Counted from the first letter of the stretch, positions 8,595 through 30,769 are shown. The stretch: 31,092 bases of DNA from a virus (UHGV-0204578), one strand, 5' to 3'. Program-made: numbers and translations. Notes: generated from the sequence alone by a model not told the origin.

Positions 8595-8610
8595 CGGGTT
8601 TTGTGCTCCA

Positions 8611-12393: not shown

Positions 12394-12430
12394 CATACTC
12401 ATAACATCAATAACCGACCAACTCTCACAA

Positions 12431-12465
12431 CGCCTCAGCAGCATTCTGCGGGGCGTTTCTTTTTG
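12431..12465 (+). terminator. Probable intrinsic terminator of the P-Q operon
   Basis: Imperfect GC-rich hairpin (cgcctcagcagcattctgcggggcg) followed by tttctttttg. Confidence 0.4.
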
Positions 12466-12559
12466 CCCTGACATCCCCCCCCCTCCACTAAATGAGGCCG
12501 CCAGCGGGCCAGAGGCTGTGCCGGATTTTGGCCATTTTACCCCGTTGCGCGCGCTCGTA

Positions 12560-12581
12560 TCCCCGCCACGCCTGCCCGCTT
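12560..12581. other. cos (cohesive-end packaging site) of the P2/186-like phage
   Basis: TCCCCGCCACGCCTGCCCGCTT; its reverse complement contains GGCGTGGCGGGGA, matching the P2-family 19-nt cohesive end (GGCGAGGCGGGGAAAGCAC) from memory. Lies just past Q, where cos sits in P2 and 186. The same 22-mer recurs at 24079..24100. Confidence 0.6.
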
Positions 12582-12611
12582 TATGTAGTGGTTTTCATGC
12601 ACCTGCATGAT

Positions 12612-12642
12612 CTACGCAAAAGCCCGCCAGTTCTGGCGGGCC
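12612..12642 (-). terminator. Intrinsic terminator downstream of the dinI-like operon
   Basis: Hairpin gcccgccag-ttc-ctggcgggc followed on the minus strand by TTTTG. Confidence 0.5.
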
Positions 12643-12776
12643 TTAGCAAAAACGATCCTCAAACGATCATGCGATCTCATGCGGCATAGACATGCACTAC
12701 AGAGCTAACGCCTCGCAAGGGCTCGTTGTTCAACCTTGCTGACGCCAGAAGCAAGTTCAGACGCCAGCAACGTTTC

Positions 12777-13010
12777 TTAATGCAGCCAGCTGTCGTCTTC
12801 CCACACCTTCTGCATAATTTTCATCACTTGTTTTCTTTCTTCGTCCAGTTGCAGTCCGGTTAGTTCCACACCGTTAGAGCTACCTTTGCGAATGCGAATT
12901 ACCGTTTTGGGATACAGGGGGCGCAGATTGCGGTAAAGCTCGGATTCAAGGGCGTCCAGGGTAGACTGGCTAATCTTCTGCTCTTTATCGATCATTATTT
13001 CAATGCGCAT
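12777..13010 (-). CDS. dinI: DinI-like protein (77 aa)
   Basis: MRIEIMIDK...DALESEL...KVWEDDSWLH resembles E. coli DinI (MRIEVTIAK...ETWESADDWF). ATG at 13010 is preceded by GAGGTGA. The longer track ORF 12777..13082 is an upstream extension. Confidence 0.8.
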   Translation of the reverse strand: MRIEIMIDKEQKISQSTLDALESELYRNLRPLYPKTVIRIRKGSSNGVELTGLQLDEERKQVMKIMQKVWEDDSWLH

Positions 13011-13020
13011 AAAAGTCACC

Positions 13021-13209
13021 TCAGCTGATGACATCCATTGAGCGGTTGTATTCGTGGGTTCTGATTTTTGCCATGAGTTCATCAGTCAATTCAGAAACCC
13101 ACTGCAGAGCCAGCCCCTTCTCTTCATCACTACACTCACTAGCCGCTACAAGCTTAAGAAAAAAATCAATGCGCTGGAGCTTCAAAGACTCCAAAAAATA
13201 GTCCTGCAT
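13021..13209 (-). CDS. Small SOS-regulated protein (62 aa), possibly a 186 Tum-type antirepressor analogue
   Basis: ATG at 13209 with strong RBS (TAGGAGGAAAG-ATG), directly downstream of the LexA box and co-oriented with dinI. The 96-aa track ORF would contain the promoter and LexA box, so the 5' extension is rejected. The Tum analogy is positional only. Confidence 0.5.
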   Translation of the reverse strand: MQDYFLESLKLQRIDFFLKLVAASECSDEEKGLALQWVSELTDELMAKIRTHEYNRSMDVIS

Positions 13210-13252
13210 CTTTCCTCCTATGACACCACACGCAACACTGTATGTATAACCA

Positions 13253-13268
13253 CTGTTTATATTTACAG
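13253..13268 (-). promoter_or_regulatory. LexA operator (SOS box) CTGT-N8-ACAG, with a weaker adjacent half-matching copy at 13238..13253
   Basis: ctgtttatatttacag is a perfect CTG-N10-CAG LexA consensus, about 45 nt upstream of the small-ORF start and overlapping -10-like TATA-rich hexamers. Confidence 0.75.
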
Positions 13269-13283
13269 TATATAATAATCTTA

Positions 13284-13314
13284 CTGATGTAAAACGTTTT
13301 TTTACGTTCATCAG
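13284..13314 (-). terminator. Inverted repeat / possible terminator after gene A
   Basis: ctgatgtaaaacgtttttttacgttcatcag: 6-bp outer and AACGT/ACGTT inner pairing between A stop (13363) and the LexA promoter. Not a canonical terminator (no clean T-run). Confidence 0.3.
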
Positions 13315-13362
13315 CCTGATATGCCTGGTATTATTAAGAGCACGAATTGTTAATCCGCGTAA

Positions 13363-15777
13363 TTAATACAGGTTCCGCCACTGATCATCTTCCTGCAAAC
13401 GCTGGTTCCGATAGAAGATACGCAGGCCTGCTCCTGACGGAATACTGCCTCCGCGAAGGAGTAAATCGACCTCTTTCTCGCTGCCATCAAATCCTCTGGA
13501 CTTCAGCTCATACACGAGCTGCAGTCGCTGATGGTCTGTAATTCGCTGTTTGTAGTCTTTACGCCGTTTCGGTTTCACCAGGCGTAACCTTGCTGCCAGT
13601 TCCCGGCGCTCTTTTTTGCTCATACTGTGCAGGTAATCGTGCAACTCCTTGTCATCCATGCTGGTAATGTCCGTTCTGGGGTCCCCATTAGCTGATTTAT
13701 CTTTCTCCTGTTGGTTCAAATTTTCAGCAAGGGGACAGTTATTGCCACGAGTCCAAGGGGCGCAAGCGCCCTGGTCGGCTGCCGCCTCCTGAACGTCAAC
13801 GGCTTTACGAACCATTTTCCACTTCACTGCATGAGTGCAGATCTTGCCCTCTGCAATGGGTGACCAGATGCCATAAATACGAATGCCGTGATCGCCATAG
13901 GCGGTCGGCTCTTCGTTGATTTCATAAGCGGTTCTGATGAGGTGATATTTACGGGGAACCAGTACGCCGCCCTGCTTCATGATGTAGGTGGCAAAACAAC
14001 CAGCATCAGCAGCAGCCAGGATGGCATCAAGGCGCGGGTTATCCAGTACCGGCGCACCTGCTTTTTTGTCCCCCTGTTGCCTTGCCGCCTGACCAGCCAG
14101 CAATCGCAGTTCACGGTAAGCCTGACGCCCCGGAATGCCAAAGAAGCGGAATTGCTGAACACGATGCAAAGACGCCCAGGCATTCACGTATTCAGCGTTA
14201 TCACGCAGAGATTTACCCGTTTCCTTGCTGATCTCGCCAGCCAGACCACGCCCGTCAATGTTCTTACTGATGTATTTCGCTATGTAGCTTGTCGGCGTTC
14301 CTTTGCGCGGGTTAATCAGCTCAGACTTAAAGCGCGGCCCCGTGTTATTGCCCAGCTCCTCGCGGTCTTCACGGATAGCAAACTTACGCAACAATGCAGT
14401 AATGGCGCGGCGGTCTTTTTTGCGCATGAAACACAACAGGTGCCAGTGAACTGTGCCGTCGTGATGCGGCTCAGCCACCCGCACGCCATACCAGCGCAAC
14501 CCGGCTTTGTGCATCGCCTTACGAAATGCAGCAAACATACCGACCAGATAATCGCTGCTTTGTCTTACCGTCGCATTTGTCCAGGTCGGGTTGGGCCTGC
14601 CGTTATTTAGCGTGGAATGGAAACGTGACGGACAGGTGATGGTGTAGAAAACGGCGCAGTCACCGCGCATTTCCGCGATAAGCTCCAGACCTTTAACACA
14701 GGCCATCATCTCATTGCGGCGATGCGCAGGGTTGCTGCTGCTGGCGTTTACCACATCCTCCATGTCCAGCGTGTCGCCGTCTTCGTTCACCAGTTCATGA
14801 GAACGGAAAAACTCCAGCGACTTACGGCGCTGCTCACGTTTATGCAACACGGCTTCATAGCTGACATAGGGAGATGCTTTTTTGCTGACAAGGCAGACAG
14901 CACGCAACTGCTCTTCCCGCCATTCGCAACGCATCTTCCATAATTTCCGGTACCACCAGTCGGCGCACAACATACGCGCCAGCGAACCCGGAATGAGTTC
15001 ATAGGGCACGGGTTTGCGGCGGTTTCTTTTCCGGCGGAGTTGCTCAAACGCAGGCGGGATAACATCCAGTCGCAGGGTTTCTGCTGCCACCTTTTCCCAT
15101 GTCTTGCGGATTTCTTCCGGCTTAACATCATCGGAGGCGTACAAATCACCACAAGCGGCATCAAGACACATGCTCATATGCGCAGCGACAAGGGTGGACA
15201 GGCGTTTCACCTGATCCTGACTCATTTCAGGCAGGATAAGCAGGCCGTCCAGCCCTTCATGGCTTGCCATAAAACGAAAAGATGCAGATAGCTGGCTGTC
15301 GCGTACATGCTCCAGTCGTTCCAGACATGGCTTAATCGTCTCACGTAAATAGCGGGAATAAGCCTTTGGCTTGCCCAGGCTGCTGAAGTATTCAATACGT
15401 TGCATCAGCGGCTTGCTGATATGGGAAGGCTGGGCGTTGACGTCCGCCAGAATGACCATATCCGGATTAAAACGCTGCTGCTCATGCGCCAGCTTTGCCC
15501 GACTAATGAGCTTATCCTGCTCCATTTCGCGCTGGACAGGATCACGGGATTCATTAAAGAAATAACGCTCCCAGACCTGATCACTCAGTGCCTCTCGGCG
15601 CAGCTGTTCCTGCTCGTTATCGGCAGCGTACAGAGTGATCAGGTTTGAAAGCGTAGAAACCGGCGCAACTTCCGCCGGGTCCAGATAAGGGTTAATGGCC
15701 TTTTTCGGGCTGTTCCATGAGAACGATGCGGCAGCCTCGTTAAAGCCGCAGCAGTTGTTCATATCGGCATGGCTCAT
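13363..15777 (-). CDS. A: Replication initiation protein A (rolling-circle HUH endonuclease, P2 gpA family)
   Basis: 804-aa ORF with HUH-like motif ([12 protein letters not shown]) and a paired-tyrosine motif (YIAKYISK) typical of P2 gpA/phiX174-type initiators. Confidence 0.85.
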
Positions 15778-16631
15778 GCACGTACTCCGTACACGGCAGA
15801 ACTATCCACGCCACGCGAATAATCAAATCCCACCCAGCAGCGCGGCCCGGAAACAGCAATGATTTCTGTTGCTGATTTACCCTCGCCAGCTGCCACACCG
15901 ATGCTGCGTTTTACCTTGATATAGTGGTGAGTAAAATTGCGATACAGCGAACGGATCAGGGATGTGTCACTGTTAGAAACAATGACCGGATGTCCTTCTG
16001 ATGACCGATGTTCAAGAACGGATGCCAGGTGATACTGGTCATCTTCAGTGAAGCCGTCAGCGTGATAGCCGGAAAACGTACCGTCATAAGGCGGATCGCA
16101 ATACACCACATCCCCCGCCTTCAACACCGCCAACGTTTCATCAAAGCTGGCGCAGATAAACGTTGCTCGCTGGGCCTTTTCTGCAAATGCGCGAATTTCT
16201 TTTTCAGGGAAATACGGATTTTTATAATTACCGTAGGGAATGTTGAAATGCCCGCTCTTGTTATAGCGACATAACCCACGGTAACCGTGACGATTGAGAT
16301 ACAGGAAATATACCGCTTTCATGAAATCAGTAATTTCAGTGGAGTAATTAAACTCCTGCCTTATGTTGTAATAAGCCACCTCCCTGTTTGCTTCCTCAAA
16401 TAAAACTCTGGCGCGAGATATAAACGATTCACAATCAGCGGCAACCTTTTTATAGAGGTTGATTAAATCAGGATTAATATCCGCAACCAGATAGCTGGGG
16501 TAATCCGTCTCCATCATCACAGCACAGGAACCCGCGAAAGGTTCAACCAGTCGCGGGCCAGCAGGAAGGTGTTTTTTCAGTTCGGACATAATGGCGGTTT
16601 TATTTCCCGCCCATTTCAGGATGGTGCTCAT
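15774..16631 (-). CDS. dam: DNA adenine methyltransferase (Dam family)
   Basis: Motifs ILKWAGNK (AdoMet binding) and DPPY (catalytic). ATG at 16631 is preceded by CAGGAGGTG; stop overlaps the A start (ATGA). The track ORF to 16703 is an upstream extension. Confidence 0.85.
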
Positions 16632-16930
16632 ACAGCACCTCCTGCAATAACATATCCTAAAGCTTCTAATGGGGTTAATGGGCGAATTGATAGCATCACC
16701 CATTGTTCTGAAACTGACATGACGTCATTAACCGGAAGCACATGAGAGATAACAGCGGCCCATTCCCTACCCGTAAATACGCCATGCTTCCATTCGCAAA
16801 GAGAAAGAACATCACCAACTTTATAGCCACGATCGTCTTTACGAAGTTCAGCCGTCTTTTGACCTGCAACCACAGCGTTGAAATACTTAGGTGCAATTTT
16901 TAATTGATGGATACGCACTGCCCTTGTCAT
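16628..16930 (-). CDS. Small ASCH/PUA-like (DUF3850-type) protein
   Basis: 100-aa product from ATG at 16930 (CGGAGGTGCTGT-ATG); family assignment from memory of P2-like early-region proteins, not verified. ATGA-coupled to dam. Confidence 0.55.
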
Positions 16931-17154
16931 ACAGCACCTCCGTTGTAGTGCTTGCCTTTCAGCTCTGCGATTTCCTGACAGGTAATGCAAAGCTGCACAC
17001 CCGGAATGGCGCGGCGTCGTGCTGGCGGAATTGGTGCTTCACATTCAATGCAAAGTACGCGGGATACGCCCGGCGTTTTGGTACGGGCAGCACAGATATG
17101 GCGCTGGCGTTCTTCTTCAACGCGCTGCTGTACGAGATCCATTGCATCAGCCAT
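16927..17154 (-). CDS. TraR/DksA-family C4 zinc-finger protein
   Basis: 75-aa ORF with C-x2-C-x17-C-x2-C ([26 protein letters not shown]); AGGAGGT RBS. Confidence 0.75.
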
Positions 17155-17387
17155 TAGTGGACCTCCTGCGCTTCGTTCTGGATTGCTTCAGCGGTCACAC
17201 GCAGCAGTTCTGCTGCTTCGACGTGGTTTAGCTGGCGGGATGTAATATGACACGCAAGGCTATCAAGGCGGGCAGCCATTGCCTCAGCCCTTGCCCGACG
17301 TTCTTCCAGACGAGCCTCTGTCAGTAAAATATTAAGTCCTGCGTCATCCGGTCCGGTTTTAGTCGAGAGGGTTTCAATATTACGCAT
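17154..17387 (-). CDS. Hypothetical early protein (77 aa)
   Basis: ATG at 17387 with CAGGAGAA RBS; stop overlaps the TraR start. Confidence 0.55.
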   Translation of the reverse strand: MRNIETLSTKTGPDDAGLNILLTEARLEERRARAEAMAARLDSLACHITSRQLNHVEAAELLRVTAEAIQNEAQEVH

Positions 17388-17454
17388 AATCAATTCTCCT
17401 GAATTTAGATAAAGGAATGCCCGGCGGGTTTACGCCATGAATTTCATTAATTGG

Positions 17455-17796
17455 TTAATTCGGCATGGCTAGCCGTCTGGGAAATAAGCTCACCACTGCA
17501 CGAAGATGATTCATTACTTTAATCAACTCCCGCTTTTCGTCAGTGGTCAGCTCATTAATGCTGATGCTATGACGTTCAGCTGGAATTTTTGCTATAAAGA
17601 ATATAGCAGCCAGTGCCCGTTTATTTCTTTCATAATTAACATCCCGTGGATCACGTATATCTTTAATAAACCGCTCAAGCTCTGGCTCAATATTCAGGCC
17701 AAATACTTTCGCCCTTAATTCCGCAATATGATTAAGTCCATTCAGGCGTTCACCTGGGCTTAATGGAACAGTCGCCGCAGCGCCATTAATTGCCAT
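17455..17796 (-). CDS. Hypothetical early protein (113 aa)
   Basis: Intact ORF co-oriented with the early operon; no recognisable motif. Confidence 0.5.
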   Translation of the reverse strand: MAINGAAATVPLSPGERLNGLNHIAELRAKVFGLNIEPELERFIKDIRDPRDVNYERNKRALAAIFFIAKIPAERHSISINELTTDEKRELIKVMNHLRAVVSLFPRRLAMPN

Positions 17797-17818
17797 AATT
17801 CATATCCCCAAAACGCAA

Positions 17819-18043
17819 CTATCGCTCTTTGTTCTTACGGTAACGCTCAAGAGGAGATATATTTTTTCGTATCATCTCTTTAACCTGCTCTCCCCGTAAA
17901 AACGTCCCATCCTTTAGCGTGAAAAAGTAACTGCCATCGCCCGACAACGACGGATAACAACAGAGCAAATCATCTTCAGGTACTGAATAACTCTCCCCTC
18001 TGTAACGAAACTGATAAACCACTTCACTTTCCGCTGCATACAT
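17819..18043 (-). CDS. Hypothetical early protein (74 aa)
   Basis: ATG at 18043 preceded by GGAGAAAG; protein-like composition. Confidence 0.5.
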   Translation of the reverse strand: MYAAESEVVYQFRYRGESYSVPEDDLLCCYPSLSGDGSYFFTLKDGTFLRGEQVKEMIRKNISPLERYRKNKER

Positions 18044-18210
18044 TTTGACTTTCTCCGTTTCCCCGTGGTCAATTCAGACAGCAATTCATCTTGTGAACGG
18101 CACGGATGCCAGCGTTTACCATCCTCACCCATGATCCAGCCGTGACCGTAGTGCATTGCCGGGCTTTGTTTTACCAGCAGCGATGCAAATGATGGTTCTT
18201 TCGTCAGCAT
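17914..18210 (-). CDS. Possible small early ORF overlapping the 74-aa gene in another frame (or frameshifted remnant)
   Basis: ATG at 18210 with the same GAGGTGCT start context as dam and the DUF3850-like gene. The N-terminal ~55 residues look protein-like; the C-terminal part is the out-of-frame shadow of the 74-aa gene. Confidence 0.3.
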   Translation of the reverse strand: MLTKEPSFASLLVKQSPAMHYGHGWIMGEDGKRWHPCRSQDELLSELTTGKRRKSKCMQRKVKWFISFVTEGRVIQYLKMICSVVIRRCRAMAVTFSR

Positions 18211-18217
18211 AAGCACC

Positions 18218-18727
18218 TCACAGCAAACCGAATGAAGCACCGAGGCCAGTCACGGTATCAACTGCACTCGCCATCGCAGGATTAGCCTGTAAACGGGCCT
18301 GCAATGAAACAGCCGCCAGCGCCATCAGTCGTGTTACAGAGTTAATGCTGCTGATAGCATCACGACGACCTGCACTGGTTTTTACATCGCCAGATACCGC
18401 ACCTGCAGCAACACGCCCGATCTCTGCGGTTGCACTCATGACGTAATGTGGCAGTTTCTCTTTTGCCACCTCATTAATCGGTACGCATGGCAGGCAGTGA
18501 ATCTGAGCCAGAAAACCATCTACCAGCGTTGAATCTTCAGTCAGATCGGTGAGTAACCAGATTTCTGGCGCTGTGAGCTGATGCGGTTGATCTGGGTTGA
18601 GTTTGTTTCGCAGTGTCTGAACATTCATTCCTGCACGTTCTGCCAGCTTCGCCATATTGTGGCGTAGTGCAAAAGCTCTACAGGCTTCATCAAAATGCGG
18701 ATGTTTGGAAATCTTGTAATCAAACAT
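18218..18727 (-). CDS. cII: 186 CII-like lysogeny-establishment activator
   Basis: 169-aa ORF, second gene of the rightward early operon after apl; length and sequence recalled as matching 186 CII (memory only). Confidence 0.65.
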   Translation of the reverse strand: MFDYKISKHPHFDEACRAFALRHNMAKLAERAGMNVQTLRNKLNPDQPHQLTAPEIWLLTDLTEDSTLVDGFLAQIHCLPCVPINEVAKEKLPHYVMSATAEIGRVAAGAVSGDVKTSAGRRDAISSINSVTRLMALAAVSLQARLQANPAMASAVDTVTGLGASFGLL

Positions 18728-18759
18728 GCTGCCCCCTTAGAAAGTTCTCATAATTGAAC

Positions 18760-19008
18760 TTAGCCACCAACGATGACATTAAAATTGAAATTGGATTGGC
18801 CCATGTTTTTCCTGACTTGTTCCTTTTTGTACTCAAGGTAACGTATACATACTCTGTCTTTCGGTTTTTCCTTTTTTTCCAAGAATTTAGCGAGCTTACC
18901 ATTATGAATCATTTGATATACCGAACCGCGAGAGCGGCCTTCCCATTCCGCGAACTCTGCAGGTGTCGCCATCACTTTTGGTACACGAATTGAAATGTCG
19001 TTGCTCAT
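18760..19008 (-). CDS. apl: Apl/Cox-like excisionase and early-promoter repressor
   Basis: 82-aa HTH protein, first gene transcribed divergently from cI, as 186 apl and P2 cox. Confidence 0.7.
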   Translation of the reverse strand: MSNDISIRVPKVMATPAEFAEWEGRSRGSVYQMIHNGKLAKFLEKKEKPKDRVCIRYLEYKKEQVRKNMGQSNFNFNVIVGG

Positions 19009-19127
19009 AGTGCAGTATCTCTCGATTAAGGTTTGGTTTATGTCGTTTTATCTTGTTTTATTAGATTCAATATTTGATACATCGAGATACTACGATCCAA
19101 TATTTGATACGTCAATAGGATTAAGAA
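19009..19127. promoter_or_regulatory. Immunity switch region: lytic promoter pR (minus strand) with candidate CI operators; lysogenic promoter pL not located
   Basis: Minus-strand -35 TTGACG (19115..19110), 17-bp spacer, -10 TAGTAT (19092..19087). Two 13-bp direct repeats caatatttgatac at 19068..19080 and 19098..19110 overlap -35 and +1. Confidence 0.55.
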
Positions 19128-19760
19128 ATGATACAGGTAAAAGCTGGCGAGAATACAGGGGGAAGAGAGGCTATCCATAGACTAATGGCAGCCTATGATT
19201 TCAAGTCCAGACAGCAACTTTGCGATCACTTAGGCGCATCAAAAAGCACTATGGCAAACAGATACTTAAGAGATAGCTTTCCCGCAGAGTGGGTGATTCA
19301 GTGCGCCTTGGAAACAGGAGTTTCTTTACTGTGGCTAACCACCGGACAAGGCGAACCAGGTTCAAACATTGACCCTAAAAAAAATATCAATTCTGTGAAC
19401 TCCAGCAGGGTTAAACCTCTTTCTGAGCTTGTATCTCCTGAAATTGACAAGGCAACTCTCAACGGTGGTTTATTGGTCGATGCTGGAAAAGCAATCATTG
19501 ATAGCAGCATACTCCCCTCAGACTCAAGCAACCTGCTGCTGGTGAGTACTTCTGGTGATTCTTATTTAATAGATCGCAACCAAACACCACCAGTAAATGG
19601 TACGTGGTTAGTGGACATCGACGGGATAAAAAGCATTGTAAAATTGACACGACTCCCGGGAAACAGATTAGTAGTGCATCAGGATGATTCATCGTTTGAG
19701 TGCGAACTGGATGACATTGAGGTAATAGGTCGCGCACTGAAAATCATTAAGAGCCTTTGA
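19128..19760 (+). CDS. cI: CI-type immunity repressor (186 CI-like)
   Basis: 210-aa ORF with N-terminal HTH-like segment, divergent from apl and immediately upstream of int, the 186 cI-int arrangement. Confidence 0.7.
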   Translation: MIQVKAGENTGGREAIHRLMAAYDFKSRQQLCDHLGASKSTMANRYLRDSFPAEWVIQCALETGVSLLWLTTGQGEPGSNIDPKKNINSVNSSRVKPLSELVSPEIDKATLNGGLLVDAGKAIIDSSILPSDSSNLLLVSTSGDSYLIDRNQTPPVNGTWLVDIDGIKSIVKLTRLPGNRLVVHQDDSSFECELDDIEVIGRALKIIKSL

Positions 19761-19761
19761 T

Positions 19762-20787
19762 ATGACCATCAGAAAACAGCCGAACGGAAAGTGGTTATGT
19801 GAATGCTACCCAAACGGGAGAGATGGCAAACGCGTACGCAAACAATTTGCGACGAAAGGCGAAGCCATTGCGTTTGAGAATTTCACCATGGATGAGGTAA
19901 ACAAGAAACCTTGGCTGGGAGAAAAGGAAGATCGGCGACAACTGTCAGAAGTGATTGAGCAATGGTATTCCCTGTACGGTCAGACACTCGCTGACCCTAA
20001 GCGATTAATGGCTAAGTTAAAAATCATTTGTAATGGACTTGGCGATCCCATCGCTTCTGAATTGACAGCAGGTGATTTCACAAAGTACCGGGAAGCCAGA
20101 TTAAAAGGTGAGGTCAAAAACGAAGATGGCGTGCTCATGTCACCGGTTAAGCCCAGAACGGTGAACCTTGAACAGCGTAACCTATCCTCAGTTTTTGGCA
20201 CACTGAAAAAGCTGGGACATTGGTCTGCACCCAACCCCCTCGCCGGTCTGCCAACTTTCAAAATTGCAGAAGGTGAACTGGCGTTCCTTGCTGCTGATGA
20301 AATCAAACGCCTGCTTGACGCATGTGCTGAATCTCAAAGTCCCAGTCTGCTAATGATTGCCAAGATTTGCCTGGCTACCGGGGCAAGATGGAGCGAAGCC
20401 GAAAACCTGCAAGGTAACCAGATATCAAAGTATCGAATTACCTATACCAAAACAAAAGGAAAGAAAAACCGAACTGTTCCTATTTCTCAGGAACTGTATG
20501 AAGAATTACCCAAAAACAGAGGAAAGTTATTCACACCATGCCGAAAGGCTTTTGAGCGTGCGGTAAAACGAGCTGGAATTGAACTACCTGAAGGTCAATG
20601 TACCCACGTTCTGCGCCACACTTTCGCCAGCCACTTTATGATGAACGGCGGAAACATTTTGGTATTGAGGGATATTTTAGGACACGCTGATATTAAAATG
20701 ACCATGATTTATGCCCATTTTGCACCTGATCATCTGGAAGATGCCGTTACCAAAAATCCACTTCATAACCTCAACTGGCATCGCTAA
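19762..20787 (+). CDS. int: Tyrosine integrase (P2/186 Int family)
   Basis: 341-aa ORF with C-terminal catalytic region HVLRHTFASHFMMNGGNILVLRDILGHADIKMTMIYAH (R..H..R..Y signature); reads toward the att core. Confidence 0.9.
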   Translation: MTIRKQPNGKWLCECYPNGRDGKRVRKQFATKGEAIAFENFTMDEVNKKPWLGEKEDRRQLSEVIEQWYSLYGQTLADPKRLMAKLKIICNGLGDPIASELTAGDFTKYREARLKGEVKNEDGVLMSPVKPRTVNLEQRNLSSVFGTLKKLGHWSAPNPLAGLPTFKIAEGELAFLAADEIKRLLDACAESQSPSLLMIAKICLATGARWSEAENLQGNQISKYRITYTKTKGKKNRTVPISQELYEELPKNRGKLFTPCRKAFERAVKRAGIELPEGQCTHVLRHTFASHFMMNGGNILVLRDILGHADIKMTMIYAHFAPDHLEDAVTKNPLHNLNWHR

Positions 20788-20904
20788 TAAATGGCGGCAT
20801 TTTGGCGGCAGAACACTAAAAACAAGTAAAACAAGCAAATACAGACTAACACTAACATCATGATTTAAAATAAAAAAATATGATTTTGTTAGTATAAAAA
20901 TGGT

Positions 20905-20949
20905 ATGTAGGAATTTCGGACGCGGGTTCAACTCCCGCCAGCTCCACCA
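20905..20949 (+). other. ssrA: att core: 45-nt copy of the 3' end of the tmRNA gene ssrA (fragment only)
   Basis: ATGTAGGAATTTCGGACGCGGGTTCAACTCCCGCCAGCTCCACCA matches the E. coli ssrA 3' terminus from memory. Sequence upstream is integrase coding/AT-rich arm DNA, so the full gene is not here. Confidence 0.75.
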
Positions 20950-20982
20950 AATGATGATCCGGATACGTCCGGTGAAGTACAG

Positions 20983-21017
20983 AAAGCCCGCATGGCACAA
21001 GCCCTGCGGGCTTTTTT
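20983..21017 (+). terminator. Intrinsic terminator downstream of the ssrA 3' end
   Basis: GC hairpin gcccgca...tgcgggc followed by TTTTTT. Confidence 0.55.
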
Positions 21018-21060
21018 GTGTCTGACGTTGTCCGAGAACATCCGGCTAAATCCGGTGATT

Positions 21061-21114
21061 ATTGGTATACGTTTAGGTATACGGTAGGATGTATACCTAA
21101 AAACGTATACCAAT
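21061..21114. promoter_or_regulatory. Inverted repeat of a 22-bp motif (ATTGGTATACGTTTAGGTATAC) upstream of the satellite integrase; candidate Int arm sites or int operator
   Basis: Arms at 21061..21082 and 21091..21114 are near-perfect reverse complements; a third copy (one mismatch) lies at 30515..30536. Confidence 0.5.
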
Positions 21115-21133
21115 TCATGAAGGAGCGGCCACA

Positions 21134-22327
21134 GTGGCACGGACAACACGCCCCCTTACCAACACCGAAGTTCTGCGCGCTAAGGCGTTAGAGAAGGATC
21201 TAACGCTGCACGATGGCGACGGGCTTTTCCTGATAGTGAAAACTAGTGGCAAAAAGCTCTGGCGCTTTCGCTATCAACGTCCGGTAACAAAGCAGCGGAC
21301 AATGATGGGGCTCGGTGCCTTCCCCGCCCTATCGCTTGCTGATGCCCGAGGATTAAGAGCGGATTACCTTGCCTTATTAGCCAACGGACTCGACCCGCAA
21401 ATTCAAACTGAAGTTGCAGAGGAACAGCAGCAAATAGCACTGGACAGTATTTTTTCAACGGTCGCCGCTAACTGGTTCCAGCTCAAAAGCAAAAGCGTTA
21501 CCCCTGATTACGCAAAAGACATTTGGCGCTCACTGGAGAAAGATGTATTCCCTGCCATCGGTGAGATCCCCGTTCAGCAAATCAAAGCACGGACACTGGT
21601 TGAAGCTCTTGAGCCAATCAAAGCTCGTGGGGCGCTTGAGACTGTACGTCGACTGGTGCAGCGCATTAACGAGATAATGATTTATGCCGTAAACACTGGC
21701 CTGATTGATGCTAATCCAGCATCAGGTGTTGGGATGGCCTTTGAGAAGCCCAAAAAACAAAACATGCCGACGCTTCGGCCAGAAGAGTTACCAAAACTCA
21801 TGCGTTCTTTGGTGATGTCAAATCTCTCTGTTTCGACTCGCTGTTTAATTGAATGGCAACTCCTGACGCTTGTGCGCCCTTCTGAGGCCTCCGGTGCTCG
21901 TTGGGCAGAAATCGATCTCGATGCAAAGCTTTGGACTATTCCAGCCGAACGGATGAAGGCGAAACGTGAGCACATAGTTCCTCTCTCAACTCAGGCATTA
22001 GAGATTCTCGAAGTGATGAAACCAATCAGCGCTCACCGTGAACATGTTTTTCCCAGTAGGAATGATCCAAAACAATCCATGAATAGCCAAACAGCTAATG
22101 CAGCTTTGAAGCGTATAGGATATGGAGGAAAATTAGTTGCACACGGTTTACGATCTATTGCAAGTACTACATTGAATGAAGCGGGCTTTAATTCAGATGT
22201 GATAGAAGCGGCATTAGCTCATACAGATAAAAATGAGGTAAGAAGAGCATATAACCGCTCTATCTATTTAAAGCAAAGAATAGGCATGATGGAATGGTGG
22301 GGTGAAAAAGTTTATAATAAAAACTGA
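21134..22327 (+). CDS. int: P4-family integrase (IntA-like tyrosine recombinase)
   Basis: 397-aa ORF, GTG start with AAGGAG 8 nt upstream; N-terminus MARTTRPLTNTEV...DGDGLFLIVKTSGKKLWRFRY typical of P4/CP4-57 integrases; sits about 185 bp after the ssrA 3' end as intA does in E. coli K-12. Confidence 0.9.
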   Translation: MARTTRPLTNTEVLRAKALEKDLTLHDGDGLFLIVKTSGKKLWRFRYQRPVTKQRTMMGLGAFPALSLADARGLRADYLALLANGLDPQIQTEVAEEQQQIALDSIFSTVAANWFQLKSKSVTPDYAKDIWRSLEKDVFPAIGEIPVQQIKARTLVEALEPIKARGALETVRRLVQRINEIMIYAVNTGLIDANPASGVGMAFEKPKKQNMPTLRPEELPKLMRSLVMSNLSVSTRCLIEWQLLTLVRPSEASGARWAEIDLDAKLWTIPAERMKAKREHIVPLSTQALEILEVMKPISAHREHVFPSRNDPKQSMNSQTANAALKRIGYGGKLVAHGLRSIASTTLNEAGFNSDVIEAALAHTDKNEVRRAYNRSIYLKQRIGMMEWWGEKVYNKN

Positions 22328-22366
22328 AAAAAAAATAAAAGCTCATTCTTATGAGCTTTTATTTTC
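22328..22366. terminator. Bidirectional intrinsic terminator between int and the cargo operon
   Basis: Hairpin aaaagctcat-tctt-atgagctttt flanked by an A-run on one side and a T-run on the other. Confidence 0.65.
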
Positions 22367-22964
22367 CTGCATTACCTTTCGAATTATCAGCATCCTGTTT
22401 ATTTTGAAAAGTCATAAAGGTATTATACCAACTAGAAACACGGAATATAGCAAGAACAGCTGCTAATGCAGAGAATACTGAGTAAATAAATATAAAGTAA
22501 GCAAAAAAACTAAATATTAATAACGCATACTTATAGAAAACACCTAAATAATAATACATAAAAGCATTATTTATGAGAATACTACTATAGGCCTTGGTAA
22601 CCAAGGCCGTAATAATAGTTAGTAATTGCAACAATATAAAATGGACAAAAGTTGCATTGACTGACATATAAGGAGAATATTCTACTTCCCCACTTTCACT
22701 TTTTTCATCACCAGTTATTATTTTTTTAAAGGCCTCATCACCAATAGCTATCCACATAGCAAAACCACCTAATGAAAAGCCCAGAAGGTTCGGCATCAAT
22801 GACAGGATATCATTCCACCACCCCTGATGAGACCAAGATGGATAAAGAATCACTGTCATTAAAAAAGCACACCAAAAATAGCGACTTTTAAACACAGCCC
22901 CAGCGCCACCATAGATTTTCCAGTATCTAGCCAATGCACTGGTTGATTCTTTTTCTTCACTCAT
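22359..22964 (-). CDS. Uncharacterised integral membrane protein (201 aa, about 4 TM helices); downstream gene of cargo cassette
   Basis: Hydrophobic segments YFWCAFLMTVILYPSW, ILSLMPNLLGFSLGGFAMWIAIG, VHFILLQLLTIITALV, YALLIFSFFAYFIFIYSVFSALAAVLAIF; start overlaps the upstream gene stop (TAATG); AT-rich. Confidence 0.7.
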   Translation of the reverse strand: MSEEKESTSALARYWKIYGGAGAVFKSRYFWCAFLMTVILYPSWSHQGWWNDILSLMPNLLGFSLGGFAMWIAIGDEAFKKIITGDEKSESGEVEYSPYMSVNATFVHFILLQLLTIITALVTKAYSSILINNAFMYYYLGVFYKYALLIFSFFAYFIFIYSVFSALAAVLAIFRVSSWYNTFMTFQNKQDADNSKGNAGK

Positions 22965-23893
22965 TACTTTCTCAGAAGCCTCTTAAATTCATCTGCTAAT
23001 GATTTTGCCCTTAATAACAATAGCTCAGAAACCGATGTTACGTCAGAATCATATGGTTCGACCCTTTGAAGTGGTACGTCACTTGAGGCATGAACCTCTA
23101 CTAATCCCGCCTCATTAATCCTGCGTATACTAACTTCACCATTTCTCGAAGCAATAAGAGCATCCTGTTTTAACTCACCATCAGGTTTAATTTCCTGACC
23201 TCGCTCAGATTTATATGTTTTATCCTCTTCAATAACCCCAATACGCTTGAAGCGCTTTTGCATAACATTTTCTGCAGAAGCGAGATCATCCGGATTAGGA
23301 CGTCGAGTGACCATATTTATACACGTAATACCTTTTAAAGAAAGCATACGTTCTACACTATCTGGCTCAGTCAATATTGTAACATTAACCTTTCCAAATT
23401 TCTCTATAATTCTCTCGTGAGAAAATATCCCATTCAGAAAGCTTTCTATTTGTCTTGGTGTAAGATGCCGGCTCTTGTCCTGCATTTCGTAAACTAAAAG
23501 ATGACTTGCGGGTAGAAAAACAAAAGAGAATCTAGCTACATTTGGTTTTAAATTATCAGGTATATTTATTCTTTCCTTTTCCTCATCTGAAGCTATATCT
23601 TTCTTTACGATATCGAACCAGTCGCCATTAACGTCAATATCTGTATACTTTAGAATTTCCCCCTCAAAAGGTTCACTAATTACCTGACCTTTCTTATAAG
23701 GATAAAAATATGATAAAGTTGCGAATGAGTCTCCTCTTAAATTAACATTGCTCGCATTTTTTCTTGCCATCCTGAATAACTCGACATACTTTTCTGGCGA
23801 GTGGGGGTGCATGGATATATTCACAGCCCCGTAAGTTAATTTTTTTGCCCTTGCCATTTTTATCTTTGTTCCCTTATTTCGTGAAAGAATCAT
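22964..23893 (-). CDS. Uncharacterised soluble protein (309 aa; 297 aa if start is ATG at 23857); upstream gene of cargo cassette
   Basis: Intact AT-rich ORF with no TM segments and no catalytic motif I recognise (no Walker A, no GS..DxD nucleotidyltransferase motif, no HxH); translationally coupled to the membrane protein gene. Confidence 0.7.
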   Translation of the reverse strand: MILSRNKGTKIKMARAKKLTYGAVNISMHPHSPEKYVELFRMARKNASNVNLRGDSFATLSYFYPYKKGQVISEPFEGEILKYTDIDVNGDWFDIVKKDIASDEEKERINIPDNLKPNVARFSFVFLPASHLLVYEMQDKSRHLTPRQIESFLNGIFSHERIIEKFGKVNVTILTEPDSVERMLSLKGITCINMVTRRPNPDDLASAENVMQKRFKRIGVIEEDKTYKSERGQEIKPDGELKQDALIASRNGEVSIRRINEAGLVEVHASSDVPLQRVEPYDSDVTSVSELLLLRAKSLADEFKRLLRK

Positions 23894-24078
23894 ATATACA
23901 TGAAAGGCTTAGGGAAAACTATGTCTTAACGCACACCATCTAATAGCCAAAGGAAATAAAAATACAATTCATTATTCAAAATGGGAATATTATTTCCTCC
24001 ACGGATAATGCTCATTGGTTCCACTACCAGATTCGTAAAAATTAAAAAAACAACATCCAAGAACAGCGCGCAATGCTC

Positions 24079-24100
24079 TCCCCGCCACGCCTGCCCGCTT
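24079..24100. other. cos site of the P4-type satellite, identical 22-mer to the helper cos
   Basis: TCCCCGCCACGCCTGCCCGCTT identical to 12560..12581; flanks also similar (ttttaatgcaggtgcatga versus ttttcatgcacctgcatga). Located between cargo and psu, where P4 cos lies. Confidence 0.6.
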
Positions 24101-24264
24101 CTTGGGGCGCTTTTAATGCAGGTGCATGAAGTGGCTCAGGCCGCGCCGCGACTGGCGCTGGTCGGGAGTACAGGAGCGGGAAAACGCATGCAAAACCATG
24201 CACCCTTTGGATGCATGGCTTAATTCGGGAAAAATGGCGGGAATTACGAGGATTTTTTGACAGG

Positions 24265-24831
24265 TTACGGCGCGGCCAGTTCGGCGCGTCGACGGGTGTA
24301 AATCATGCTCTGTGCAGGGGTGAATTTTTCACGATTATCATCCCGCGAAGGCGCGTCAGGCCTGTATCCGATGGCCGTTAAAATATCGCTATCCTGTGCC
24401 GAATAATTAATTTCATTTCCTGCGGCCAGCCAGACGGAAAGAGCTTCTCGCAGGTATGCTACTGAACGGTCAAGCGCACGGTTTTTTATCATCGTGGGCT
24501 GGTTCTTAATTCCCATCAGCTCGGGTGCCAGTGCGGCGGCCAGCTCCGCGCCGTTCTGCTGCATAAAATCGTACAGCCGGTTACGGATGCTGATGCGCTG
24601 CACCTCCTCATGCGAGGAAATGTAGCGACCGGCGGCCTGATTAATCTCCCATTTTTTTACGTCAATAATATCTCGCAGCGTCTGTAATCTGCGGGAACCT
24701 GATGCGTTGTCATCCAGCAATAATTCCTGATATTCCTGTTCTGCGGCGGTCAGTTCGGCTTTACAGTTCAGCCACGCCGTTTTGTTCGTCTGACAGGCAT
24801 CGAACGCCTGCTGTAAGGTCAGGGTGGTCAC
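24265..24831 (-). CDS. psu: Psu (polarity suppression / capsid decoration protein)
   Basis: 188-aa ORF (GTG start) with strong similarity to P4 Psu (..LQQAFD.CQ.NK.AWL..K.EL.AAEQEY..NQAAGRYI.SHE.VQ.ISIR.RL.DFMQQ..). Confidence 0.85.
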   Translation of the reverse strand: MTTLTLQQAFDACQTNKTAWLNCKAELTAAEQEYQELLLDDNASGSRRLQTLRDIIDVKKWEINQAAGRYISSHEEVQRISIRNRLYDFMQQNGAELAAALAPELMGIKNQPTMIKNRALDRSVAYLREALSVWLAAGNEINYSAQDSDILTAIGYRPDAPSRDDNREKFTPAQSMIYTRRRAELAAP

Positions 24832-24847
24832 GGGTTGTCTCTCCTGA

Positions 24848-25093
24848 TTAATGGTGGAACGGTGAGCTGTAGCAGCTTTTTACCCGGCGGGGTGTAACGG
24901 GTACTGTCGGCACCGGTGCGGGTTTCTCATCGACGACCGGGGAACGGATCACCTCAAAGATGGACTCATGCGTTTTGAATGTCGCCGAGCAGTGCACATT
25001 CTGGCACTGGAGGTAACTCTCTTTGACGCTGTCAGACATATAGCGGCTGGTGCGAACGTGGGCCGCTGTGCGACAGAAAGGGCAGCGCATCAT
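24848..25093 (-). CDS. delta: Delta/Ogr-family zinc-finger late-gene activator
   Basis: MMRCPFCRTAAHVRTSRYMSD...YLQCQNVHCSATF mirrors P2 Ogr (CPLCQHAAHARTSRY...HQCQNVNCSATF). Confidence 0.85.
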   Translation of the reverse strand: MMRCPFCRTAAHVRTSRYMSDSVKESYLQCQNVHCSATFKTHESIFEVIRSPVVDEKPAPVPTVPVTPRRVKSCYSSPFHH

Positions 25094-25827
25094 GACAGTA
25101 ACCCTCGTGCTTTCAGATCGGCTTCACGTTCCTGCATTTTTTCCTGCCAGACTTTTCGCTGACCGGGCGTGGCCGCAACGTCATGCTCCATATGTGGCAG
25201 CGTGGAGGCCGCCAGCCCTGTTTTAAAAAGCACTGGTTCATCAGTCAGACGGATATTGCAGTCCTTCACCGCCTGCTCAAGCCATGATTTCACCTTATGC
25301 ATAACGGCATGCTCTGGTTCGACATAGCCCTGATGCCCGATGGTGTTGGCAAGCGGATTTTCTTTAACCAATATGCTGAGTTTCATTGCTCTAACGAGTG
25401 CGCCGCAGGTTTCACGTAGGGCGGCATCGAGTTCATGCTCTGCATACTGGCTGAGTACGCCGTGATGCGCCTGACGGTATGTTCTGGCCGTGCTGTCACA
25501 GGCTCCCCGAAGGCTGTCCAGCTCGAAAGACAGCACCTCAGCCATGTTGTCACATTCCAGTGCCAGCTCCCGCCGTGCCACGCGCGCAATATGGCGTTGT
25601 TTCAGCTCGTCGGTAATGACAGCACCACCGGCACGAAAGGCGGTGCGCCATGCACCGGAATCATTGCCGTTTTCCTGCTCCAGTTCAGTTTTTTGCGTTT
25701 TCACCTGGCTGATGGCCGTCGTGGTTTCGTCCATGCGTCGGGCATTGGTCAGATGTGCTTCTCTGGCCGTCTCAAGACTTTCTATTGCGGGTTTAAGGTA
25801 GTCGGGAATAACAGCGGTCTGAGTCAT
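25090..25827 (-). CDS. sid: Sid (capsid size determination external scaffold)
   Basis: 245 aa from ATG at 25827 (GAGGAGA RBS); position and length as P4 sid, upstream of delta and psu; helical, Gln/Glu-rich. The track ORF start at 25893 is an upstream extension. Confidence 0.75.
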   Translation of the reverse strand: MTQTAVIPDYLKPAIESLETAREAHLTNARRMDETTTAISQVKTQKTELEQENGNDSGAWRTAFRAGGAVITDELKQRHIARVARRELALECDNMAEVLSFELDSLRGACDSTARTYRQAHHGVLSQYAEHELDAALRETCGALVRAMKLSILVKENPLANTIGHQGYVEPEHAVMHKVKSWLEQAVKDCNIRLTDEPVLFKTGLAASTLPHMEHDVAATPGQRKVWQEKMQEREADLKARGLLS

Positions 25828-25899
25828 GTCGGGTCTCCTCTTCGTTTCAATCTGAGGAGATTCTGCCGCGCCGGACACAACAACACGATTCATTGCCGT

Positions 25900-26367: not shown

Positions 26368-26634
26368 ATGCACACCGTTTTTTCTTCCCCGTCTTCTGCC
26401 CCTGCCGCGCCGCTGATGCCGGTTTCTGATACCGTTCACGAACGCTTTATCCGTCTGCCCGAAGTGATGCATCTGTGCGGCCTGTCCCGCTCGACCATTT
26501 ACGACCTCATCAGCCGGGAAGCCTTCCCGAAACAAATCTCCCTCGGCGGAAAAAATGTGGCGTGGGCGCAGTCTGAAATCACTGCATGGATGGCGGATCG
26601 CATTGCCGAACGTAACCGGGGCTATGACGCATGA
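26368..26634 (+). CDS. alpA: AlpA/Vis-family small DNA-binding regulator
   Basis: 88-aa ORF with the AlpA-type HTH segment [49 protein letters not shown]. Confidence 0.75.
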
Positions 26635-26761
26635 TGATGATCGCTCAGCAAACAGCCCCTTTTTCTGGCTTGCTTCTTTTCGCCATTTCCAGGTATAGTT
26701 TTCCCGCTGTCGCAAAATCGACAGCCGGGCGTGGAAACCCGAGCAACTCGAAGGCGACACC

Positions 26762-26785
26762 AGACGCGCCATGCGTCTTTTTTTG
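26762..26785 (+). terminator. Intrinsic terminator inside an untranslated leader
   Basis: agacgc-gccat-gcgtct hairpin followed by TTTTTTT, in the roughly 400-bp gap between alpA and the next RBS-bearing start. Confidence 0.55.
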
Positions 26786-27032
26786 TGTCGCAACTAACGC
26801 CACAGAGCGCCAGATAATGGCGTGGTGTGCGGATCGTCGTGCAGACGTCACTTTGTGTCTCCTGTCCGCAATCGCATATCATGCTGTCATGTCAATGGTA
26901 GCTCAGGCGGGGCAGCCCTCGGGCTGGCCGGTATTCTTCGAGGCCGGTATTTCCACCCCCGTCTGGGCTATCGCCACTGAGCGTGGAAACTCCGGCGATA
27001 GCAATAATTTGCTACTCGAAGGAGGTTGCCTT

Positions 27033-27227
27033 ATGGCTACGACCCTCACCCCGTCACAGCCTCAGTTTGTCTTTGTGTTTGCCGCCGTCCGTCGTGCAGA
27101 CCGTAAGCCCCGTATCTGTATGCTCCGCACCGTTGCCGGTGACGAGCACGCCGCACGTCTTTCCCTCGTTCGCGATTACGTCCTCTCGTTCGCTGGCCGT
27201 CTGCCGGTTGCGGAGGTGCGCGCATGA
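27033..27227 (+). CDS. Hypothetical small protein (64 aa)
   Basis: ATG at 27033 preceded by AAGGAGG (7-nt spacing). The upstream in-frame 134 codons of track ORF 26631..27227 contain the terminator, look non-protein-like and are rejected. Confidence 0.5.
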
Positions 27228-27451
27228 GACACACCACCATTACCGCCCGTGACCTCGAATGCCTTGAGCACATGCGCAACGTCGGCCAGCTCGTCAATGA
27301 GCTGATGCAGGTGCAGGACTGTACGGCCGTTCGTCGTGACCCTGCTCAGCAGTCACAGCTCACCTCCGTGATTTACCTTATGACCGCCCAGCTCGACGGC
27401 GTGGTTGAGCGCTGCAATCAGCACTGGCTGACCGGGGAGGGCAACGTATGA
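27224..27451 (+). CDS. Hypothetical small protein (75 aa)
   Basis: ATGA-coupled to the previous ORF, GGAGGTG RBS. Confidence 0.55.
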
Positions 27452-27768
27452 AACAGCCATTACCGCCCGTATTACGCGCCGCGCTGTATCGTCGCGCCGT
27501 GGCCTGTGCATGGCTGACGGTGTGCGAATGCCAGCACCGCTACCCGCACCTCACCCTCGACGCGCTGGAAAGCGCCATTGCCGCCGAGCTGGAGGGCTTC
27601 TATCTGCGCCAGCACGGCGAGGAAAAGGGCCGTCAGATTGCCTGTGCATTACTGGAAGATTTAATGGAAGCCGGGCCACTGAAAGCCGCGCCGTCACTGT
27701 CCTTTCTCGGGCTCGCGGTGATGGATGAACTTTGCGCCCGTCACATCACATCGCCTGTACTGCACTGA
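27448..27768 (+). CDS. Hypothetical protein (106 aa)
   Basis: ATGA-coupled to the previous ORF, directly upstream of alpha. Confidence 0.55.
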
Positions 27769-30116: not shown

Positions 30117-30125
30117 CCTACCTCA

Positions 30126-30149
30126 GACCGGCAACAGCCGGTCTTTTCC
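30126..30149 (+). terminator. Intrinsic terminator after alpha
   Basis: agaccggc-aaca-gccggtct followed by TTTTCC. Confidence 0.6.
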
Positions 30150-30168
30150 TTTCTGGCCATTGCCACAG

Positions 30169-30455
30169 GGTGAACAATCCACTGCTCACCCTTCACCGTA
30201 TATTCACCCTGTATCACCATGAAATTATTGATAAAAAACCAGAGGTGAACAGTGTGAACAGTAAAACCTGAAAAAACTTTTTATCACCCCTCACATCGCC
30301 TGAGCGGACGGTTCCAGAACGAGCACAAATCACAAAGGTGAAGAGTCGACTGTTCACTCTTCACCAACCATTCACCACTTATCATTATGATATTAAAAAG
30401 AAAAAAAGAGAGGTGAACAGTGTGAACAGTTAAATGCAAAAAAACTTTTTTTTAA
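30169..30455. repeat. Two tandem ~168-bp repeats, each carrying TGTTCACC-type iterons (crr-like cis replication region)
   Basis: Units starting near 30169 and 30337 are clearly homologous; GAGGTGAACAGTGTGAACAGT occurs in both (30242 and 30410), with several TTCACC/GGTGAA half-iterons. Confidence 0.65.
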
Positions 30456-30514
30456 TGCGTTCCATTCAAAAAAACAGGTTTGCAAAACCAAAGTAAACAC
30501 TACAGCAAATCGCC

Positions 30515-30536
30515 ATTGGTATACGCTTAGGTATAC
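30515..30536. repeat. Third copy of the 22-bp GGTATAC-containing arm motif near the satellite right end
   Basis: ATTGGTATACGCTTAGGTATAC; one mismatch to 21061..21082. Confidence 0.5.
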
Positions 30537-30735
30537 AACTGAAAGTTGAATTGATAAATATTCAATAAAATCAAAATATTGAGAAAAATTTTCAGACTCC
30601 GCCAGCCCAATCATGATTGGACGGTGTAAGGACAACACCAACAAAAACAGGAAGTTAGAAGTCTCAGCAAAACACCGACCAGACGGTGAGGAGACATAAA
30701 AGGATACGCAAAGGAGCCGCGGCTCCTGGTAACAT

Positions 30736-30760: not shown

Positions 30761-30769
30761 CGTTGATGG

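Follow-up and report, generated by a model that had tools for sequence, protein, structure and literature searches.

Tandem insertion of a Fels-2-like prophage and a P4-like satellite at the Escherichia coli tmRNA gene

The DNA analysed here, a stretch of 31,092 nt from UHGV-0204578 (hereafter the window), carries two mobile elements side by side: the right-hand part of a Fels-2-like prophage and a P4-like satellite, separated by a displaced copy of the 3′ end of ssrA, the gene encoding tmRNA (Table 1). We consider it highly probable that they constitute a two-member tandem array at the Escherichia coli tmRNA gene, generated by two successive and independent site-specific integrations. The array features are all on the plus strand, namely the two integrase genes, the 45-mer at the inner junction and a damaged core at 30593-30609. 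A first-pass annotation had proposed tandem integration at the ssrA 3′ end by elements that each possess their own integrase, with a 45-nt copy of the gene's end between the two integrase genes; this was borne out, and its coordinates were all correct. The integrase reading frames lie at 19762-20787 (plus strand, toward the fragment) and at 21134-22327 (plus strand, away from it). The locus is a real but ordinary instance of the long-known accumulation of mobile elements at ssrA.

Table 1. Features of the tandem array, in window coordinates.
Feature	Position	Strand	Basis or remark
Fels-2-like P2-family prophage, right ~21 kb (~two-thirds)	1..20904		Window edge cuts tail-fibre gene H
Prophage cos-like site	12547..12610		Just past portal gene
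apl/cox-like excisionase-repressor	18760..19008	-	PHROG 6912 and 575, excisionase / Cox-like
CI repressor, 186/Fels-2 type	19128..19760	+	Pfam Phage_CI_repr; annotated CI in near-identical prophages
Fels-2-type tyrosine integrase, ssrA-specific	19762..20787	+	Pfam Int_N and Phage_integrase
Phage P arm of attR	20788..20904	+	From int stop codon to core
Displaced ssrA 3′ fragment	20905..20951	+	45 nt of ssrA (20905-20949) plus AA
T-arm	20922-20938		Within ssrA fragment
Acceptor 3′ strand and ACCA	20939-20949		Within ssrA fragment
Complete P4-like satellite, 9.7 kb	20950-30609		Core genes int, psu, delta, sid, alpA, alpha in P4 order (Pfam, PHROG)
Satellite attL (P′) arm	20952..21133	+	Identical arm in other loci; terminator scan; repeats
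Candidate 21-nt arm-type repeat, TTGGTATACGTTTAGGTATAC	21061-21082		In satellite attL arm; inverted copy at ~21088-21111
P4-type (CP4-57/IntA-like) integrase	21134..22327	+	Pfam Arm-DNA-bind_3, Phage_int_M and Phage_integrase
Hotspot cargo: DUF4747 (RexA-like) protein and 201-aa partner	22359..23893	-	GC ~35%
Satellite cos-like site	24066..24129		Between cargo and psu
psu - delta - sid operon	24265..25893	-	Capsid-size redirection, late-gene transactivation
Early/immunity region	26368..27768	+	alpA, C4/CI-type RNA, isrK-like RNA, Ash/Icd-like ORF, two small ORFs
a1b1 target of C4/CI-type RNA	26693-26745
isrK-like RNA	26706-26783
C4/CI-type antisense RNA	26891-26978
alpha primase-helicase, 777 aa	27783..30116	+	Pfam Zn_Ribbon_Prim, Toprim_3, D5_N, DUF5906, Pox_D5
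Satellite right end	30117..30592	+	ori/crr-type GGTGAACAG repeats (cf. P4 ori/crr annotations) and P arm
Candidate arm-type repeat, TTGGTATACGCTTAGGTATAC	30515-30536		In satellite attR (P) arm
Satellite attR core, damaged	30593-30609	+	CAGACTCCGCCAGCCCA; followed by ATCATGATTGGACGG from 30610
Native E. coli chromosome downstream of ssrA	30610..31092		ATCATGATTGGACGG...; 3′ end of ypjA on minus strand

The fragment at 20905-20949 (ATGTAGGAATTTCGGACGCGGGTTCAACTCCCGCCAGCTCCACCA) is an exact match to the last 45 nt of ssrA when aligned with the annotated 363-nt gene of E. coli NCTC10973, and the likeness ends sharply at 20904, with none further upstream in the same alignment. When a 26-mer of the ssrA end was sought with up to three mismatches, a single match was found in the window and none in 100 shuffles. 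Only the terminal fragment is present, as the first-pass annotation had stated, because neither ARAGORN nor Rfam calls a tmRNA gene in the window; nor does the window hold a second long ssrA copy that could represent the satellite attR. On the phage side, the P arm is conserved with the right ends of L003, L006 and Fels-2. On the satellite side, the attL arm is constant across the loci compared, the distance from CCA to the start of int being always 184 nt, and the identical arm is found behind intact ssrA in L001, L015 and L019 as well as behind other elements. What varies is the stretch of ssrA to the left of this arm: 363 nt where the neighbour is the gene itself, 45 nt behind a Fels-2-like phage and 27 nt behind a lambdoid prophage, which has a third integrase type. 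The upstream element thus sets the length of the ssrA fragment, and the 45-mer is therefore the phage attR core, sized by the block of identity with the phage attP. The segment 20905..20951 is at once this core and the B-side and core of the satellite attL. A terminator scan also detected a terminator-like hairpin (20999-21013) followed by a T run in the satellite arm, at a site where it would act as the ssrA terminator in a chromosome with the satellite directly behind the intact gene.

The prophage is collinear over its right ~21 kb with Fels-2 and with annotated prophages in L003 and L006, its ogr/tail end lying outside the window. Its genes run in the order gpI/J/W/V, lysis, capsid, terminase, portal, cos, DinI-like, gpA, Dam, cII, apl, cI and int, and its nucleotide identity to E. 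coli P2-like prophages and Klebsiella phages is 95-98%. The integrase is 95.3% identical to that of Fels-2 (341 aa), 55.8% identical to that of 186 and ~37-40% identical to Peduovirus (P2-type) integrases. The first-pass annotation had described a helper-type prophage with a 186/P2-type integrase; membership of the P2 family stands, and the integrase label gives way to Fels-2-type. A 186-type or P2-type integrase was rejected on the identities given and on the different target gene, the resemblance being confined to the broad subfamily and the geometry of the att site. With the Felsduovirus members Fels-2 and SopE-phi, by comparison, the prophage shares a closely related integrase, the gene order of its right ~21 kb, a right end in which cI and int read toward the core, an identical 47-nt core and, as seen in its relatives L003 and L006, a mode of integration that keeps the 3′ end of ssrA intact. 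[quoted passage not shown] In the Fels-2 record the attP is split into 24 and 23 nt (33670-33693 joined to 1-23), which together equal the 47 nt of window 20905-20951. Those two are Salmonella phages, whereas the prophage described here resides in E. coli, as indicated by the ypjA flank, and its nearest nucleotide relatives are E. coli and Klebsiella prophages. The exact Int protein is very widespread, occurring at ssrA in E. coli and also adjoining fljAB-hin-iroB, a neighbourhood that we take to be the Salmonella region downstream of ssrA.

Some parts of the prophage vary among its relatives. Between int and the att core, TOK-001 has GapS1 and PSS-08-2 a hypothetical gene; in the window this gap is empty (117 nt). 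Since its content differs in this way, the gap behaves as a cargo hotspot. The region of the DinI/Tum-like gene between the portal gene and gpA (12394-13360) contains extra genes or an IS26 insertion in relatives. The prophage further encodes an orphan Dam-type methyltransferase (15774-16703, minus strand; PADLOC oMTase, E = 2e-111).

The right element had been read as a P4-type satellite in the first-pass annotation, and Pfam, PHROG, Rfam and the cos-like site confirm that it is genuine and complete. The psu-delta-sid assignment is based on Pfam matches to Psu (E = 2e-89) and Ogr_Delta, a 267-aa reading frame belonging to PHROG 6165, and nucleotide homology to the sid-containing segment of P4. 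That of the early/immunity region draws on Pfam Phage_AlpA and Phage_ASH, PHROGs and Rfam, in which the C4 (76 bits), c4-a1b1 (48.5 bits) and isrK (74 bits) matches are all above the gathering score. These three RNA matches fall within 290 nt (26693-26978, plus strand), inside or overlapping a putative 198-aa Ash/Icd-like reading frame (26631-27227), and the segment they span looks like the RNA immunity module of P1 immI and P4 CI. Nucleotide identity to P4 is ~79% over the region from sid to ori and ~80% in alpha, and an element that immediately follows intact ssrA in NCTC10973 matches the satellite at 93-99.9% identity. Its exact 397-aa integrase adjoins intact tmRNA genes in several hosts. 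Beyond the satellite, the native flank is the same as that found after the phage attR in L003 and after a satellite attR in L001. A cryptic island resembling CP4-57 was ruled out as an identity for the element by the full set of psu-delta-sid, alpha, CI-RNA and cos.

In common with satellite phage P4, the element possesses int, a hotspot with cos, psu-delta-sid, a CI/C4-type RNA, alpA, alpha and ori/crr repeats. It differs from P4 in that it targets ssrA and carries a RexAB-like cargo pair, and in that no homologue of the epsilon antirepressor was recognised in the satellite, the Ash/Icd-like reading frame and two small reading frames taking that position. P4 itself integrates at leuX. One cargo protein is assigned to DUF4747 by Pfam (E = 5e-99), and its 201-aa partner has ~4 hydrophobic helices, as does RexB. 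PADLOC (2023), which has no model for either gene, returned no match for the satellite cargo; in the literature, DUF4747 has been linked to lambda RexA, Sbash gp30 and ‘DUF4747/CarolAnn’ defence.

The satellite attR was located through the native flank, as ATCATGATTGGACGG follows the ssrA-derived CCA in a satellite-free strain. It corresponds to the ssrA 3′ end with deletion of T357 and loss of one CCA, which makes it 4 nt shorter than ssrA, and it belongs to the class CGCCAGC----CCA (Table 1 of PMC10107115). Deletion of T357 has been recorded in CP4-57 and in further ssrA elements that have a P4 integrase (PMC10107115). In independent contexts, namely E. coli, hosts in which a bapA-type operon precedes ssrA and suggests Salmonella, and another host, every copy of the satellite attR carries CAGACTCC-GCCAGC-CCACCA, that is, the T357 deletion. 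Since no context or host lacks the deletion or the CAGACTCC variant, both appear either to move with the element or to arise systematically; loss of one CCA is an additional change in the satellite lineage of the window. The erosion states observed comprise GCCAGC-CCACCA (T357 deletion only), GCCAGCCCCA, GCCAGCCCAC and GCCAGCCCA, seen at 30593-30609 of the window, at ~19420 in L015, L016/L017/L020 and L021, and at ~20565 in L018. A 21-nt repeat with the consensus TTGGTATACG[T/C]TTAGGTATAC occurs twice in the attL arm, once inverted, and once in the attR arm, and is a candidate arm-type integrase site.

Comparison with coliphage 186 and CP4-57 suggests where each integrase exchanges strands. 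Coliphage 186 shares with the prophage the Pfam architecture of its integrase, an int gene that reads toward the truncated 45-46-nt 3′ end of an RNA gene, and the octamer TGTAGGAA on the crossover side; it differs in an Int that is only 55.8% identical and in its target, tRNA-Ile (ileY) rather than ssrA. In the 186 record the annotated crossover is 7 nt long and falls in the anticodon loop, where the 46-nt truncated tRNA has its 5′ edge; the tRNA runs in the same direction as int, as in the window, and TGTAGGAA directly precedes the crossover. The octamer is found within 1024-1043 in 186 (L035), 20905-20913 in the window and 33670-33678 in Fels-2 despite the different target RNA genes, and is a candidate core-type binding half-site for Int. 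Because it is kept at the 5′ edge of the 45-47-nt block of Fels-2 and the window, the phage crossover is predicted at ~20914-20920, by analogy with a 186 integrase that is only 56% identical to the prophage enzyme. The satellite matches ssrA imperfectly, from the T-loop onward and over no more than the final ~23 nt of the gene. Excision of CP4-57 moves the T357 deletion into ssrA, so that its crossover lies 5′ of T357, around CGCCAGC (PMC10107115); the corresponding position for the satellite would be ~20935-20942.

The two integrases thus probably cross over ~20 nt apart and not at one shared core, each being expected, given separate crossover positions, to excise its element independently. 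The satellite attR is, however, 4 nt short relative to ssrA, and precise excision of the satellite, or even any excision, may have been lost. Two statements of the first-pass annotation need to be narrowed here. Use of the same core does not hold in a strict sense, given a phage block of 45-47 nt as against ~23 nt for the satellite and separate predicted crossovers. Nor are the integrases unrelated: both are tyrosine recombinases of different subfamilies that share a catalytic domain (25% identity over 131 aa) and differ in their N-terminal DNA-binding domains.

The components of the array, and the array itself, are found in other genomes. The complete genome of EC23HZZ201 has smpB, the 363-nt ssrA, the same prophage, int, the 45-mer and ypjA, with no satellite, while that of NCTC10973 has smpB-ssrA-satellite-ypjA and no phage. 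In E. coli 2824 the full double array is present, with an ARAGORN-confirmed tmRNA gene at the ogr end of the prophage. The first-pass annotation expected an intact ssrA beyond the helper prophage, and one is present there in the related genomes E. coli 2824 and EC23HZZ201; in the case of the window, collinearity with these relatives would place the end of the intact gene ~10.4 kb to the left of the window start. Among 5,426 complete E. coli genomes, a junction search found phage int, fragment and P4-type int in at least 10, the partner P4-type int genes being 77-89% identical in nucleotide sequence to that of the window and some of them decayed. The same arrangement occurs in Klebsiella and at locus L031, which has a fljAB-hin-iroB flank and is taken here to be Salmonella. 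Scans of genome, metagenome and viral collections gave no match to the exact 82-nt junction. Proteins identical to gpI, the phage Int and the satellite Int occur in many other genomes, and a look-up with the rarer Ash-like protein retrieved two metagenome contigs of 13-20 kb that end before ssrA and are 99.99% identical to the window across the junction.

The sequences show how the locus is built, to which families its parts belong, where att is copied, that such arrays recur and that a cos site is shared; the order of arrival, the crossover positions and the capacity for excision are inferred, as follows. The P4-like satellite would have entered first, directly behind ssrA, bringing its own copy of the gene's last bases together with the terminator. 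The Fels-2-like phage would then have entered by recombination between the 47-nt core of its attP and the intact ssrA that had been regenerated, so placing its left (ogr) arm behind the intact gene, outside the window, and leaving the displaced 45-nt end, still joined to the satellite attL arm, behind the phage int. That continued linkage to the satellite arm is why the 45-mer serves as phage attR and satellite attL simultaneously. The opposite sequence of events, in which the phage came first and the satellite later entered the displaced 45-nt fragment in the phage attR, is in our view distinctly the less probable. The junction sequence is equally compatible with both orders. Moreover, about 23 nt from the end of ssrA are all that the satellite requires, and in L021 this satellite follows a fragment of 27 nt, so a fragment would in principle suffice as a target. 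A satellite able to choose between equivalent cores should, however, have produced some arrays in the order ssrA-satellite-phage, and a synthetic query composed of satellite right arm, core and phage left arm found none in the 5,426 genomes, as against at least 10 forward junctions with the phage always proximal. Moreover, when stacked with another P4-type element this satellite adjoins the intact gene and the other element is distal, and the satellite, its damaged attR and its flank are common to phage-free strains. The positional data fit a rule that the newest element is proximal, with the phage as the later arrival. That the junction is instead an assembly chimera, in which two strains, one with the phage alone and one with the satellite alone, were joined at the 45-nt repeat they share, is scarcely credible. 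A metagenome may be the source of the window, and both types of junction contain the repeat, but two independent assemblies give the same junction at 99.99% identity, the name of one of their contigs (k119_127845) points to 119-base assembly words that are longer than the repeat, and complete genomes have the same architecture.

Whether juxtaposition of the two elements has a function is a separate matter from whether they are helper and satellite. Their cos-like sites, 64 nt with 78% identity and an identical 22/22 core (TCCCCGCCACGCCTGCCCGCTT), represent the sole significant DNA similarity between phage and satellite, and both are situated where P2 and P4 keep cos; the P4 cos has been placed in the int-psu hotspot (PMC8628076), with which the satellite site agrees. 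The shared core makes a helper relationship plausible, and the cos-like match taken with psu-delta-sid and alpha supports a real one, as far as sequence comparison can indicate. In such a relationship the helper acts in trans, and the two elements need not be neighbours. The proposal that adjacency is nevertheless functional and selected, either because a linked unit is co-inherited or co-mobilised or because the helper regulates the satellite in cis, could appeal to the shared cos-like site, to the direction of the phage cI-int operon, which faces the satellite int across a single predicted terminator, and to occurrence of the same pair in two further samples. We judge it very unlikely. With the phage type in 137 genomes and a close P4-type int at ssrA in at least 405 of the 5,426 complete E. 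coli genomes, independent occupancy predicts ~10 arrays (137 x ≥405 / 5,426) and 10-14 were observed, on counts that are rough, uncorrected for phylogeny and derived from searches of differing sensitivity; the agreement gives no sign of selected adjacency. P4-type partners elsewhere are diverse (77-89% nucleotide identity) and often decayed, and the satellite also occurs alone or behind unrelated elements. Further, a composite of ~43 kb would exceed the capacity of a P2-size head, and neither integrase, presumably, would have its own arm sites at both outer ends of the composite.

Stacking of this kind has clear precedents. Williams (2003), as cited in PMC7192596, reported tandem arrays at the tmRNA gene of enterobacteria that involve several integrase subfamilies, and ssrA of S. 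Typhimurium LT2 holds Fels-2, with a P2 integrase, together with Stm27X, an island with a P4 integrase (Table 1 of PMC10107115). Known ssrA arrays resemble that in the window in having stacked elements of different integrase subfamilies and displaced gene fragments at their junctions. They differ in that the P4-integrase partner in the window is a complete and, judging from its gene content, apparently functional satellite with a cos-like site matching that of its neighbour. Surveys of P4-like satellites mention neighbouring elements with their own integrases and not adjacency to a helper, and in the literature searched we found no description of a P2-family prophage adjacent to a complete P4-like satellite with matching cos.

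CP4-57 of E. coli K-12 has several features in common with the satellite: its integrase is of the P4 type and targets ssrA, AlpA is encoded, and the T357 deletion is found in attR. It is cryptic, whereas the element in the window is a complete satellite whose attR has lost a further CCA and whose attL is a displaced fragment, so that the functional ssrA would not be directly affected when the satellite excises. Excision of CP4-57 is known to switch ribosome rescue from tmRNA to ArfA. On this basis it might be speculated, with considerable doubt, that a prophage lodged between ssrA and the satellite alters the outcome of excision, giving a two-step, order-dependent tmRNA switch in which the helper shields trans-translation. 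In strains with only the satellite, excision would write the T357 deletion and the CCA loss into the functional ssrA and shift rescue from tmRNA to ArfA; in the array the lesion would go to the displaced 45-mer and would reach ssrA only if the Fels-2-like phage excised afterwards, because the phage crossover lies upstream of the lesion. The uncoupling by a prophage of satellite excision from a CP4-57-type tmRNA lesion, inferential as it is, represents an only mildly new angle.

The array therefore adds little new biology, ssrA being the best-documented hotspot for stacked elements and both Fels-2-type and P4-type integrases known users of it. It has value as a worked example in several respects: the length of a displaced target fragment tells which element made a junction, two integrase subfamilies operate on one 45-nt stretch with probably different crossover points, and arrays appear to grow with the newest element beside the gene. 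For studies of P4-like satellites, it also supplies a natural pair of potential helper and satellite with matching cos-like sites and a RexAB-like cargo. The identical 397-aa integrase was further observed in an array of two P4-type elements, in the order tmRNA, satellite and second P4-type int, at two loci where, as in Salmonella, a bapA-type operon precedes tmRNA (L016 and L020; 9453-20827), and behind a lambdoid prophage with a 27-nt ssrA fragment (L021; 5774-11194), the integrase of which contains Arm-DNA-bind_2. From these additional arrays, at least three integrase types share the ssrA locus around one satellite lineage.

Arrays of this type are merged or mislabelled by prophage predictors and annotation pipelines, whether as a Klebsiella ‘complete phage genome’ or as fragments called ssrA. 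The record titled ‘Klebsiella phage Kp4865-2, complete genome’ (L036; OK490418.1, UNVERIFIED; 46.7 kb) comprises a P2-like prophage, a 45-nt ssrA fragment and an element with a P4-type integrase, and is therefore an undivided tandem array and not one phage. At the displaced fragment in E. coli PSS-08-2 and GPEC673, RefSeq lists a 177-nt ‘ssrA tmRNA’ (L004 and L005; 3001-3177) that overlaps the 3′ end of a 343-aa hypothetical cargo gene between the phage int and the att core, and this looks like an annotation artefact. In the 186 record, the truncated tRNA-Ile is annotated on the plus strand, yet the minus strand is the one on which its sequence reads as the 3′ end of a tRNA.
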